In this document: positions 2,670-9,856 of the stretch, in pieces
Layout of the letters: each line of letters opens with the position of its first letter
Position numbering within the stretch: position 1 is the first letter of the stretch
UHGV virus genome: UHGV-0144897
Origin: a virus
DNA: 10,204 nt
Strand: one strand, 5' to 3'
Notes under the pieces: generated by a model
Told to the model about the DNA's origin: nothing
Databases searched by the model: none
Seen by the model: only the letters and a program-made list of their open reading frames with translations
Program-made: the position numbers and the translations under genes

Positions 2670-3212
2670 TCACATAACCCCCAGCATCGATGTAACCATT
2701 GTCATCAGCGGCCCCACCTGCTCCGGCATGAGGCGGAACAGCGACGCTATACCCTCGCTTACCTCTTTCAGCTTCTGATGCTCCGGAGCGTCCAGCAGCA
2801 CGGCCTGCTTTGCTTCGGCACACTCTTTCATCGCAGAGGCGATCAGCGACATCGTGTCGTTCTGCGGTGCCAGGCGGTTGCGAAATTCCAGTGGAAGTAC
2901 CGCCATGATTGCGGGCGTCAGCTGGCGCACATTCTCGCGGTACTGCTCTGAGTCGAAGCGGTTATCTAGGAAGCGAAAAAGTTTCTGGCGCGCCCTGCTG
3001 ATGTCTTCCGGGAAGCTGATGGCGGTCCCGCCCTGCTCCCGGTATTCGTTGATGATCAGCGCCGAAACGACGTCCTGATTGTCCAGCGCCGATGACCATG
3101 CACGGACCGCATCGCGGATCTTTTCGTGGCCTGGCGCCGCTTTAGGTTGAGCGCGGTTTATCATTGCTCCCGGGTGTATTCCGGTATTGTGTTGATACGC
3201 AAGTGAATGCAT
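2670..3212 (-). CDS. cII-slot regulatory protein (180 aa), family uncertain (possibly the larger CII-like/YdaT-like type)
   Basis: ORF-track 2670..3212. ATG 3212..3210 with AAGGGA RBS, 30 nt downstream of the Cro-like stop. The position between cro-like and O-like genes matches lambda cII, but the protein is about twice as long and not recognisably lambda CII. Confidence 0.6.
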   Translation of the reverse strand: MHSLAYQHNTGIHPGAMINRAQPKAAPGHEKIRDAVRAWSSALDNQDVVSALIINEYREQGGTAISFPEDISRARQKLFRFLDNRFDSEQYRENVRQLTPAIMAVLPLEFRNRLAPQNDTMSLIASAMKECAEAKQAVLLDAPEHQKLKEVSEGIASLFRLMPEQVGPLMTMVTSMLGVM

Positions 3213-3241: not shown

Positions 3242-3469
3242 TTAAGCGGCTTTTGGTTTACTGATTTCAAGAATCTGGTTTTCGGTAAACTGACCACCAG
3301 ATGCAGCTGCGATTTTGGACGCATAGCCTGTTTCGCCTGTGTAGTCGGTGCGCGGTAGGCAACCGCTATTAATCCACTTGTAAATAGCGCGGGGAGTGCG
3401 CCCGCAAGCCTTCGCCACCACCGGTACACGGATTTGTTTGATGATGTCGCCAAGGTTTTTAGGTTGCAT
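3242..3469 (-). CDS. Cro-like / YdaS-like HTH DNA-binding protein (75 aa)
   Basis: ORF-track 3242..3469. ATG 3469..3467 with GAGGG RBS. HTH-like VVAKACGRTPRAIYKWINSG. Divergent from the cI-like repressor across an operator-rich region. Confidence 0.75.
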   Translation of the reverse strand: MQPKNLGDIIKQIRVPVVAKACGRTPRAIYKWINSGCLPRTDYTGETGYASKIAAASGGQFTENQILEISKPKAA

Positions 3470-4272: not shown

Positions 4273-4860
4273 ATGGAAGCAATTAAGGTTACAGATCTTA
4301 GTGATGGAAGCGGTTTGTACGAGCTTGGCGACCACTTCATCACCTGCAAATTAAGCCACGATAAACGTTGGCAACTAGGTGCTTTCAAACGTGATGAAAG
4401 CAAGCTCAGAGATGACACACTGGCGGTTTTGAAGAATGAAAAATTCATGTTTATGGTTAAGCTCGGCGGACAGCTTTCTCCCAAGCCTCAATGCATAGCT
4501 GTTAACGGGCGATTTTTATTTTCTGTCCATACCGGCAAAGACAACAACATGGCTGCAGCCATAGTCATGGATAACACCGGGAAAGAGTTATTCAAGATAG
4601 AAACTTCCACTCACCTCATCAGTTCGGCCATATCTGAATTTGGGCGCTACATCGCCCTATCGTTTGCCGGTAGCAAAAACAAAGATGATTTTTACGCGCA
4701 CCGGCTTGAGGTCATAAACATTGATACCGGAGAGGTGTTGATGTCCGTTATCAAAACAGACTTCCTTCGATACGCTGAGCTTTCAGTTGTTGAGCCAGAC
4801 GGCGGACTTTTCGCAACTTTTAATGGTCGCACAAGGCTTGTTGATGTGACGAACCTCTAA
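4273..4860 (+). CDS. hypothetical protein (195 aa) translationally linked to the repressor; rexAB-slot moron, candidate exclusion/defence gene
   Basis: ORF-track 4273..4860. GAGGAAG RBS 6 nt upstream of the ATG; starts 12 nt after the cI-like TGA. No Walker, HTH or TM segment recognised. First 60 nt are about 45% GC. Confidence 0.8.
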   Translation: MEAIKVTDLSDGSGLYELGDHFITCKLSHDKRWQLGAFKRDESKLRDDTLAVLKNEKFMFMVKLGGQLSPKPQCIAVNGRFLFSVHTGKDNNMAAAIVMDNTGKELFKIETSTHLISSAISEFGRYIALSFAGSKNKDDFYAHRLEVINIDTGEVLMSVIKTDFLRYAELSVVEPDGGLFATFNGRTRLVDVTNL

Positions 4861-5947: not shown

Positions 5948-6586
5948 ATGGGCTCGGCAGCTACCGACATCATTCTTGAGAGCAAGAGAAGCCGAAAGAA
6001 AAATAAGGGGCCTGTCCACGGAGTTGGGATTATTGATGTTCCATTCAGTGTGCGCGGAACAGTAGATGGGAAAAAGATATACCACCGAGCCTTTAAGGTT
6101 TGGAACAGCATTTTGCAGCGATGCTATTACCCACCTATTCAAGCCAAGTATCCATCATACATAGGCTGCTCTGTTTCCCCTGAATGGCTGCTCTTCTCTG
6201 GTTTCCTTAAGTGGTGGAAAGCGAATTTTCATGAGGGCTGGGAAATCGATAAAGACCTCCTATTTCCTGGCAACAAGATCTACTCACCAGATAAATGCCT
6301 TTTCGTTCCATGCGATCTGAATAGTTTTGTAATCAGCCGAGAAGCAAAGCGCGGACCTTCTCCTATCGGAAGTACGTTTGATGCTCGTTATGGCGTTTAT
6401 AGGACAACTATCAGTCTTGGGAAAGGCCAAAAGCATTACTTGGGGTCGTTCGTTTGTCCAGACGAGGCATACACCGCCTGGCTCAGTGCAAAGTTGAAGC
6501 TTGCTGAGCGATTCAAACCAATCTGCGACGAGATACACCCTCAACTTTACGACAGCCTACTCACGAAAATTCGCTCGATTAAATGA
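5948..6586 (+). CDS. free-standing endonuclease-like protein with a C-terminal AP2-type DNA-binding domain (HNH/homing-endonuclease-associated type), 212 aa
   Basis: ORF-track 5948..6586. AGGAGG RBS 6 nt upstream. C-terminus ARYGVYRTTISLGKGQKHYLGSFVCPDEAYTAWLSAKLKLAE fits the AP2 signature (YxGV...GK...LGxF...EA..A). N-terminal W-x6-RC...Y-x-Y-x-G...W-x-x-F...F pattern recalls phage HNH-associated proteins. Family is recognition only. Confidence 0.75.
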   Translation: MGSAATDIILESKRSRKKNKGPVHGVGIIDVPFSVRGTVDGKKIYHRAFKVWNSILQRCYYPPIQAKYPSYIGCSVSPEWLLFSGFLKWWKANFHEGWEIDKDLLFPGNKIYSPDKCLFVPCDLNSFVISREAKRGPSPIGSTFDARYGVYRTTISLGKGQKHYLGSFVCPDEAYTAWLSAKLKLAERFKPICDEIHPQLYDSLLTKIRSIK

Positions 6587-7644: not shown

Positions 7645-8301
7645 ATGTTGAGAGTTATTGATACCGAAACTACCAGCCTGGAAGGCAGTGTGCTGGAGAT
7701 TGCCAGCGTTGATATCGTCGACGGCGTTATTTGTAATCCCATGAGCGACTTTGTGAAGCCCACTGAAGCGATTAGCTTCGAGGCTATGGCTATCCACCAT
7801 ATCACTGAAGATATGGTCGCTGACGCCCCGCTGATTGGTGAGGTTATCGGTCGTTACCTTGGCGCGCAGGCTTACGTCGCTCACAACGCGAAGTTCGATA
7901 AATCGAAGCTACCACAAATCGACGCGCCGTGGATCTGCACCGCTAAGCTGGCCCGTGCTCTTCTCCCGGATCACCCAAGCCACAGTAACCAGTACCTGCG
8001 TTACAGCCTGGGCCTGAAACCTGAACTTCCGGAAGGCCTGTATGCGCACCGCGCGCTATATGACTGCTACGTCACTGCTGAATTGCTTCTGTACATGGGA
8101 CGCCTGGCGAAATGGACGTTTGGCGAAATGCGCGCCATTTCAAACAGCCCGTCACTGATTAAGGCGATCCGGTTCGGCAAGCACAAGGGCCTGACGTTTG
8201 AAGAAATTGCGAAGGTCGACCCTGGCTATCTCCGTTGGTTGTCCAGCAACAGCGACGACGAAGACATTCTCTTCACCATCAAACACTGGCTTAAGGGGTG
8301 A
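7645..8301 (+). CDS. DnaQ-family DEDDh 3'-5' exonuclease, ExoX-like (218 aa)
   Basis: ORF-track 7537..8301 begins with TTG. Preferred start is ATG 7645 with GGAGA RBS, so the protein starts at the Exo I motif MLRVIDTETT. Also YVAHNAKFD, HRALYDCYVTAELL and C-terminal FGKHKGLTFEEIAKVDPGYLRWL, matching my recollection of E. coli ExoX. Confidence 0.9.
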   Translation: MLRVIDTETTSLEGSVLEIASVDIVDGVICNPMSDFVKPTEAISFEAMAIHHITEDMVADAPLIGEVIGRYLGAQAYVAHNAKFDKSKLPQIDAPWICTAKLARALLPDHPSHSNQYLRYSLGLKPELPEGLYAHRALYDCYVTAELLLYMGRLAKWTFGEMRAISNSPSLIKAIRFGKHKGLTFEEIAKVDPGYLRWLSSNSDDEDILFTIKHWLKG

Positions 8302-8304
8302 TTT

Positions 8305-8970
8305 ATGGCGGTGATGACTCTCATCCTTGCCGACTCCGGGTATGGCAAGACGTACAGCATCCGCAACGTTAACCCGGAAAATGCCATTCTCGCTCGCTGT
8401 ATTCGTAAGGCCCTTCCGTTCCGTAATACCGGCTGGAAACTCCACGGTAAACGCCTGCCGGATAACTCAATCCAGCGCGGGAACGTGGTTGATATCCGCA
8501 ATGGCCGTCATCTTCTTGACGTGATCCGTAACGCTGCGATTAGTGGTCGAAAGATTCTGATTATCGATGATTTTCAGGCCGTCATGCAGCACGAGAACAT
8601 GGACCGGGCCTACGAGACTGGCTACACCAAGTTTACTGAAATGGCGGAGCACGCCTGGCGCATCATCGAAGCTGCAACCCAGCTTCCTGACGACTTCCGC
8701 GTTTACTTCCTCGCACACACCGAAGAGAGCGAAGGAAAAATCAGAATGAAGACAGTCGGCAAGATGCTTAACGAAAAGCTCACTCCTGAAGGCTACTTCC
8801 CTATCGTTCTGCGCATCATCAAGCGCGACGGCAAACACCTTTTCCTGTTGAAGGGCGACGACAATGACACCGTGAAATGTCCTCCTGACCTGTTCGGTCC
8901 AGAAGTGACTGACATGGATAACGACCTAGCGGCGTTCGACAACGCAATTTCTGAATTTACTGACTTATAA
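8305..8970 (+). CDS. Sak4-like (RecA-core, AAA_24-type) ATPase, putative phage recombination/annealing protein (221 aa)
   Basis: ORF-track 8305..8970. AAGGGG RBS. N-terminal Walker A LILADSGYGKTYS; ILIIDDFQ Walker B-like. Size and position between an exonuclease and an SSB-like gene fit phage Sak4-type proteins. Confidence 0.75.
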   Translation: MAVMTLILADSGYGKTYSIRNVNPENAILARCIRKALPFRNTGWKLHGKRLPDNSIQRGNVVDIRNGRHLLDVIRNAAISGRKILIIDDFQAVMQHENMDRAYETGYTKFTEMAEHAWRIIEAATQLPDDFRVYFLAHTEESEGKIRMKTVGKMLNEKLTPEGYFPIVLRIIKRDGKHLFLLKGDDNDTVKCPPDLFGPEVTDMDNDLAAFDNAISEFTDL

Positions 8971-8981
8971 GAGAGATAACG

Positions 8982-9692
8982 ATGAACCAACCAATCAGCT
9001 TTACCTGGAACCAGCAGTCGGCAGAAGCAGCACTCAGAGCAGGATCCTCCGCTGGCATTTCTGAAACCGGCGCATATGAAGGGGTGATCACCTCCGCTGT
9101 TTATGAGTTCGGCAAGGATGGATCACAGTCGCAGGCACTTGTTCTTTCGCTCGACGCTGACGGCCAGAAAGCAAACTTCCTGCGCATCAATTTCCTCGGT
9201 CGCGACGGCACACAGACTTTTGGTATGGGATTGATCGCCGCCATCATGTGGGCTGCGCAGGTTAAAGACGCTCAGGCGCAACAGCGCCAGGGGCAAAGCG
9301 GCCCTGAATGGTGTCTGCCGGCACTGGAAGGTAAGCGTGTCGGCTTGTTCCTGCAAAAAATCCTCACCACCAAGACAGATGGCAGTGACAGCTACAAATT
9401 CGAAGTCCGGCATGTTTTCCAGCCGGGAAGTCGTCTGACCTATAAAGAGTTCACCGACAAAACGCCAGCAGAAGCGATCGCCACACTCGAGCGCACCATG
9501 AAAGACAAAGACGACCGTAAACCTCACGACTCTTCTCGCGGGGGCTGGGGTGCACCATCACATAGCGGTGGTGGGTGGGGTGGTAATCAGCAGGATCCGA
9601 ATGCGGTACCTGAATCGCGCCTGCAGCAGGCCAACCGTCAGGTATCGCAGAGCAATAAACATCCTCAGTTCGACGATGATATCCCCTTCTGA
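8982..9692 (+). CDS. SSB-like protein with divergent N-terminal domain and canonical SSB C-terminal acidic tip (DDDIPF), 236 aa
   Basis: ORF-track 8982..9692. Gly/Gln-rich linker RGGWGAPSHSGGGWGGNQQ then terminal QFDDDIPF, identical to the E. coli SSB C-terminal tip. The N-terminal 150 aa do not look like canonical SSB. Confidence 0.8.
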   Translation: MNQPISFTWNQQSAEAALRAGSSAGISETGAYEGVITSAVYEFGKDGSQSQALVLSLDADGQKANFLRINFLGRDGTQTFGMGLIAAIMWAAQVKDAQAQQRQGQSGPEWCLPALEGKRVGLFLQKILTTKTDGSDSYKFEVRHVFQPGSRLTYKEFTDKTPAEAIATLERTMKDKDDRKPHDSSRGGWGAPSHSGGGWGGNQQDPNAVPESRLQQANRQVSQSNKHPQFDDDIPF

Positions 9693-9703
9693 AAGGCATC
9701 GCT

Positions 9704-9856
9704 ATGACTCACGCTCACGACGACATCAGGGTTGGCACGCTGTGCCTTCCCTTCATTGGTAACGGCTGGCTAATGCCATGGGGTGAAGTGGTCAGCAATC
9801 CATTAAAGGCGCAGCGGCTCGCTGAGGAATTTCGGGAAAGGCAGGAGGCGGCATGA
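9704..9856 (+). CDS. possible small ORF (50 aa) coupled to the methyltransferase gene
   Basis: Below the ORF-track cutoff. ATG 9704. TGA stop (9854..9856) overlaps the methyltransferase ATG at 9853 (ATGA). Weak RBS (AAAGG). Confidence 0.3.
   Translation: MTHAHDDIRVGTLCLPFIGNGWLMPWGEVVSNPLKAQRLAEEFRERQEAA

Follow-up and report, generated by a model that had tools for sequence, protein, structure and literature searches.

Phage HK620 encodes HkaK, a distant homologue of single-strand binding protein (SSB) whose gene usually adjoins sak4 (Hutinet et al. 2018, PMC5928155). HkaK was found to bind single-stranded DNA (ssDNA), to prevent annealing mediated by RecA and to have an elution behavior that suggests a tetramer; its stimulation of ATP-dependent annealing and recombineering by Sak4 requires its last six residues, NDYPPF (PMC5928155). 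The HK620-type SSB was named 'SSB-2' in a 2025 survey of lambdoid recombination modules (PMC12315714). Kazlauskas et al. (2016, PMC4889955) proposed that DUF669 and N4-type proteins are SSBs with acidic tails and highly diverged OB folds. That an annealase reads an SSB tail is an established principle, because RecT-type annealases read the last seven residues of the host SSB (bioRxiv 10.1101/2020.04.14.041095). Here we describe a 10,204-nucleotide stretch of virus genome UHGV-0144897 (the window), in which the gene at 8982-9692 on the plus strand probably encodes, judging from its sequence relationships, an SSB-2/HkaK-type cognate SSB of a Sak4 annealase, belonging to an already described family and carrying the exact tip of the host SSB.

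An SSB-2/HkaK-type protein with a host-type tip

The gene and the parts of its product are as follows.

8982-9692, plus strand: probable SSB-2/HkaK-type phage SSB gene, an open reading frame (ORF) matching phrog_743 (E 1.5e-38) and HK620 HkaK (36% identity over 182 amino acids)
8982-9521, plus strand: predicted folded domain, residues 1-180, with an N-terminal helix, a divergent OB-fold core and C-terminal helices at 154-172
9522-9668, plus strand: linker, residues 181-229, Gly/Gln-rich, poorly conserved and predicted to be disordered, containing SRLQQA (212-217)
9669-9689, plus strand: acidic tip FDDDIPF, residues 230-236, the same as the enterobacterial host SSB tip

The ORF runs from ATG to TGA and encodes 236 amino acids plus the stop. 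A purine-rich AGAGAGA precedes the start codon, which lies 11 nucleotides past the sak4 stop. The translated product ends in NKHPQFDDDIPF followed by the stop; over a longer stretch its terminal residues read SNKHPQFDDDIPF, the last letters being QFDDDIPF, and SSRGGWGAPSHSGGGWGGNQQ forms a Gly-rich stretch N-terminal to the last third of the tail. A preliminary description of this DNA had reported both the QFDDDIPF end after a Gly-rich linker and its identity to the tip of E. coli SSB. The translation confirms the first of these, and the second is borne out by the final six residues, which are those that end E. coli SSB (PDB 1eqq) and Klebsiella SSB (7f2n).

The phrog_743 family is labeled 'single strand DNA binding protein', and HK620 HkaK (NP_112044), which our protein matched by BLASTP with E 5e-26, falls in the same family (E 1.4e-65). 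An exhaustive profile search recovered 1,011 clusters at E<=0.001. Megablast of the gene against phage records gave no match, and relatives in those records were reached by tblastn. One hit of the profile is probably a repeat or composition artefact: P0147, a repeat-rich, adhesin-like protein of 4191 amino acids, produced 24 separate matches to profile positions 5-72, with a summed E of 5e-53.

Similarity to canonical SSB is restricted to the end of the protein. No Pfam family, PF00436 and DUF669 included, was found by hmmscan at E<=0.1, and neither HK620 HkaK nor seven relatives gave a relevant family at E<=1. The gathering score of PF05037 (DUF669) was not reached, a weak test since the protein that Hutinet et al. 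placed in DUF669 fails it likewise, and the UniRef label of one relative (P0045) is 'DUF669 domain-containing'. In sequence searches of the PDB, by phmmer and by profile, matches to bacterial SSB were confined to the tail, and NCBIfam PRK09010 scored 17.4 bits against a cut-off of 260, again in the tail only. An hhalign comparison of residues 1-180 with the cores of E. coli and epsilon34 SSB returned a non-significant probability of 0.5%; the pairing of TDGSDSYKFEV with DQSGQDRYTTEV in that comparison is suggestive, without statistical support.

The closest described relative can be compared feature by feature. With HkaK (also Abc1-HK620) the protein shares a homologous core, membership of PHROG 743, a place right after sak4 in the early-left operon, a short linker and an acidic tip ending in P-F. 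The two differ in that the HkaK tip is NDYPPF whereas the tip here is DDDIPF, the exact host tip, and in that the linker here is about 40 amino acids longer than that of HkaK, Gly/Gln-rich and provided with SRLQQA. The surrounding modules also differ, since an ExoX-type exonuclease lies upstream here and the gene for anti-RecBCD Abc2, which comes after the SSB in HK620, is absent. With canonical E. coli SSB (PF00436) the protein shares a predicted OB-fold core, a disordered linker rich in Gly, Gln and Pro and an identical DDDIPF tip, but not a sequence match in the OB domain.

A divergent OB fold predicted from homologues

AlphaFold run on the single sequence gave a predicted local distance difference test score (pLDDT) of 41, which was unusable, and was replaced by a model built on an alignment of 118 homologous sequences. 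The alignment-based model has a mean pLDDT of 81.5, with values of 92-98 across residues 30-180. The core consists of strands at 30-43, 51-59 and 62-72, a helix at 81-91 and strands at 119-130 and 136-146, to which are added a helix at the N-terminus, a small hairpin (100-111) and the C-terminal helices. Because this strand-strand-strand-helix-strand-strand order is that of an OB fold, residues 1-180 are predicted to be a divergent OB fold, unrecognizable by sequence and recognizable by predicted structure; the model has the five-stranded barrel of canonical SSB, its third and fourth strands being separated by a helix. The tail that follows is predicted to be disordered, as pLDDT falls below 50 for most of residues 184-236 (184-205, 207-209 and 223-231).

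The top PDB match by Foldseek was PrgE of plasmid pCF10 (E 6e-5), ahead of dozens of bacterial SSBs; the nearest solved structures after PrgE were bacterial SSB, Rim1, RPA and PriB. The resemblance to PrgE (8s4s, 8s4t) is distant, at 14% identity and with a large root-mean-square deviation, and the two are unlike in behavior: PrgE binds ssDNA and double-stranded DNA as bead-strung monomers by way of an N-terminal tail, whereas tetrameric behavior is seen for the SSB-2 homologue of HK620. The best-matching viral models were DUF669 proteins and N4-like phage SSBs (E 5e-14 to 1e-9), which have been interpreted as combining, like the protein here, a highly diverged OB fold with an acidic C-terminal tail. 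The N4 SSB has extra roles, such as activation of late transcription. A fold like that of T7 gp2.5 or Enc34 ORF6, which we had expected, was absent among the top structural matches and was rejected.

These results refine what had been supposed from the letters alone. That the N-terminus is unlike canonical SSB holds true at the level of sequence. A folded N-terminal domain is predicted, but the 150 residues first allotted to it fall short of the extent in the model, about residues 1-180. A standard OB fold had been held out as the outcome that would make this simply a phage SSB; the fold is indeed modeled confidently, though as a divergent form that sequence comparison does not detect. Of the two interpretations then offered, the divergent phage SSB is favored by the HkaK homology, the phrog_743 assignment and the confident OB-fold model, whose structural neighbors are ssDNA-binding OB proteins.

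Pairing with sak4 in the early-left operon

The remaining genes of the module were assigned as follows.

7645-8301, plus strand: ExoX/DnaQ-type 3'-5' exonuclease, first gene of the module (Pfam RNase_T E 2.9e-19, ExoX-like_C E 5.1e-11)
8305-8970, plus strand: sak4, RecA-like ATP-dependent ssDNA annealase and presumed partner of the SSB (phrog_2872 E 1.8e-69)
9704-9856, plus strand: DUF1317 small protein, conserved directly 3' of the SSB (phrog_1998 E 1.9e-27; PF07026 in relatives' gene tables)

The protein encoded upstream of the SSB is 46% identical to HK620 Sak4 (HkaL; E 2e-66), and phrog_2872 is labeled 'Sak4-like ssDNA annealing protein'. A scan of one genome per species gave 57 loci that encode relatives of the SSB (from Enterobacterales, Pasteurellaceae, Alcaligenaceae, Collimonas and others), and a Sak4 homologue ends just 5' of the SSB start in 46 of them. 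The pairing also occurs in two distant relatives, from Bergeriella and a metagenome (L002, L004). The early-left operon of the window lies on the plus strand, 3' of the repressor, and its last genes encode the ExoX-type exonuclease, Sak4, the SSB, DUF1317 and an MT-A70 methyltransferase, an order repeated in four related loci (L005, L006, L007 and L009). An identical protein is encoded in a prophage integrated beside fliE in an NCBI assembly (L007). The window, a metagenome contig in ENA, carries a lambdoid immunity and replication region, in which the minus strand has genes of Ren-like, DnaC-like, O-like, CII-like/YdaT and Cro-like type and the plus strand has an S24 repressor; the ExoX-Sak4-SSB module belongs to the early-left operon of an Enterobacterales lambdoid prophage.

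The module's position also bears on whether the protein is mainly a replicative SSB, as for the DUF669 and N4 types, with the tip linking it to the replisome of the host (Pol III chi, PriA) and adjacency to sak4 being secondary. Kazlauskas et al. read DUF669 viral proteins as replication SSBs (PMC4889955), N4-like phage SSBs are among the nearest viral models, the tip is exactly the host's, and the prophage uses host replication proteins by way of O-like and DnaC-like loaders. The gene, however, is located in the early-left recombination module and not in the O/DnaC module on the opposite strand, it directly follows sak4 in the great majority of the scanned loci, and its HK620 homologue acts with Sak4. 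We consider a mainly replicative function unlikely; replicative and Sak4-partner roles are not mutually exclusive.

Several features of related modules are worth recording here. The exonuclease gene is contained in a longer, TTG-started ORF from 7537, and its product is of the ExoX/DnaQ type and not the 5'-3' lambda-Exo or RecE type. In one of the two distant relatives (L004:2719-3396) a YqaJ/RecE-type exonuclease is encoded, after the SSB instead. The chromosome of Xenorhabdus sp. TCT-1 carries three ExoX-Sak4-SSB copies (L053, L054, L055) whose SSB tails and match coordinates are identical. In Arsenophonus nasoniae there are at least four copies of SSB-2 (L034, L043, L047, L049) with unusual ends (GDDVFFSG and similar) and with no Sak4 within 1.5 kb upstream; these are perhaps decaying prophages.

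Conservation of the acidic tip

DDDIPF is terminal in 84 of 119 homologues, close and distant. In column conservation computed on 55 homologues with pairwise identity below 80%, the mean top-residue frequency was 0.86 over the seven columns of FDDDIPF, 0.62 in the core and 0.16 and 0.20 in the linker segments. Given that prevalence among homologues and the contrast between tip and linker, the match to the host tip is not due to chance. Among the cluster representatives from the profile search, 37 of 143 end in DDDIPF and 33 more in near variants (DDDLPF, EDDLPF, DDEIPF and others).

SRLQQA stands out in the otherwise variable linker with a column conservation of 0.48. It lies at 9615-9632 of the window, inside a weakly predicted helix (213-223); in E. 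coli SSB, a QSRPQQS sequence stands about as far from the tip. SRLQQA may be a second interaction motif.

Alternatively, the tail could be of recent origin, captured by recombination from a host ssb gene, its identity being an accident of history. Such a chimera would account for PDB and NCBIfam matches found only in the enterobacterial SSB tail, for the relatives P0061 and P0064, which carry NEPPMDFDDDIPF, the same as the end of E. coli SSB, and for an identical tip plus extension on canonical phage SSBs (below). The DNA and the wider family speak otherwise. Blastn of the tail-coding DNA (9500-9692) against 5,426 complete E. coli genomes gave no match, only 14 of 27 residues match E. coli SSB at the protein level beyond the tip, and the tip is retained in relatives down to 31% identity across Enterobacterales, Pasteurellaceae and Neisseriaceae. 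For these three reasons the tip appears to be an old, selected feature, and recent capture is extremely improbable.

Variety of tips and possible exchange of tails

Within the genome scan, the SSB-2 proteins of Enterobacterales prophages have both host-type and non-host-type tips. The DDDIPF tip is found in the clade of this protein and in Xenorhabdus TCT-1, DDDIPF plus an extension of 15 amino acids also occurs, and other SSB-2 proteins of the order end in NDYPPF (HK620), DDNFSPF (Photorhabdus), DDPGFTPF, NDDAPF or GDNSAPF. We rejected the idea that the tip simply tracks or copies that of the host, since prophages of one host order carry host-type and other tips alike. Because Sak4 of HK620 needs a non-host tip, the common constraint on the SSB-2 tip is most likely the phage annealase. 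In addition, the DDDIPF clade would be compatible with the partners of host SSB.

The same variety weighs on the suggestion, made in the preliminary description, that the protein is a tail-mimic. As a decoy with no SSB role, it would use DDDIPF to titrate or redirect host SSB partners, for example by blocking Exo I, RecQ or RecO, and a strongly conserved, exact host tip on a core without sequence similarity to host SSB is what such a decoy might look like. A pure host decoy would not, however, tolerate the non-host tips NDYPPF, DDNFSPF, DDPGFTPF and NDDAPF in relatives from the same order. The core, moreover, is a confidently predicted OB fold whose structural neighbors bind ssDNA, and the homologue from HK620 acts as an SSB does, binding ssDNA and blocking annealing by RecA. 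Competition with host SSB is not required to explain the tip, as the demonstrated job of the HK620 tip is to stimulate the Sak4 annealase; the key context, sak4 directly upstream, had been overlooked when the mimic was put forward. We regard the decoy as very unlikely.

In a subset of SSB-2 homologues DDDIPF is internal and is followed by an extension of about 15 amino acids, APIGLPFP(R/S)HxxYAL. Carriers are L005:4001-4732 (P0054), P0023, P0033, P0035, P0037, P0038, P0040, P0041, P0044, P0053, P0061, P0062 and P0064, with L011:2501-3232 and L010:2063-2569 also listed. Such an extension would leave the free C-terminal Phe carboxylate buried. A literature search on the DDDIPFAP extension found no paper.

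An identical tip plus extension ends the canonical-type lambdoid SSBs of epsilon34 (gp35, ...NEPPMDFDDDIPFAPVTLPFPRHAIHAI), HK75, mEp235, mEpX2 and ECP1, and the genes for canonical-type phage SSBs with the extension adjoin those for Erf annealases. It is possible, if rather doubtful, that tails are interchangeable modules that move between unrelated lambdoid SSB cores, with the tip defining which annealase and which host partners are engaged. Were this so, the DDDIPF clade would have dual specificity, serving Sak4 and the whole host SSB interactome, and the extension would act as a cap, keeping the free Phe carboxylate masked until it is needed.

A model for SSB and Sak4 action

We propose, with good though not complete confidence in the identity of the SSB and its role as partner of Sak4, the following sequence of events. 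Upon induction, the early-left operon would express the exonuclease together with Sak4 and the SSB. The OB-fold core (residues 1-180) would coat ssDNA, probably as an oligomer, as suggested by homology with the tetrameric HK620 protein, and residues 181-229 would serve as a flexible linker that presents FDDDIPF on the SSB-coated ssDNA. As a docking peptide, FDDDIPF would recruit or activate Sak4, leading to ATP-dependent single-strand annealing for phage recombination. We infer ssDNA binding, oligomeric state and Sak4 stimulation by analogy, the last of these from HK620, where removing the last six amino acids abolishes stimulation.

The host-identical tip may dock host SSB-interacting proteins too (for example Pol III chi, PriA, RecO, Exo I and RecQ), and for such binding through the exact host tip we judge the case to be evenly balanced. 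Conversely, tip identity may let Sak4 act on ssDNA coated by host SSB.

Other features of the prophage

At 5948-6586 on the plus strand, the early-left operon includes a 212-amino-acid HNH endonuclease ORF (phrog_953 E 3.8e-72) flanked by small ORFs; in the related prophage L007 this position is taken by other genes. Directly 3' of the S24 repressor lies a 195-amino-acid ORF (4273-4860, plus strand) with no PHROG match and no recorded Pfam match. The position 3' of the repressor is often occupied by superinfection-exclusion or defence genes, and in L009 it holds HipA_2 and DUF3037 genes. The product of the CII-like gene (2670-3212, minus strand) carries a YdaT_toxin Pfam domain, the Cro-like gene is at 3242-3469 on the minus strand, and the Cro-like product of L007 carries a YdaS_toxin domain. 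A YdaS/YdaT pair thus occupies the Cro/CII position, as in Rac-like prophages.

Implications

The family has already been described in print (2016, 2018, 2025), together with its divergent OB fold, acidic tail and Sak4 partnership, so the protein is of limited novelty as a discovery. Sources that name it say 'hypothetical protein', and annotation as a Sak4-cognate SSB is possible. Compatibility between annealase and SSB tail limits portability (bioRxiv 10.1101/2020.04.14.041095), which makes a Sak4-SSB pair bearing the exact E. coli-type tip a natural choice to try as a recombineering tool. With several kinds of tip in a single host order, these phages are well suited to asking whether Sak4 or host proteins constrain the SSB-2 tip.
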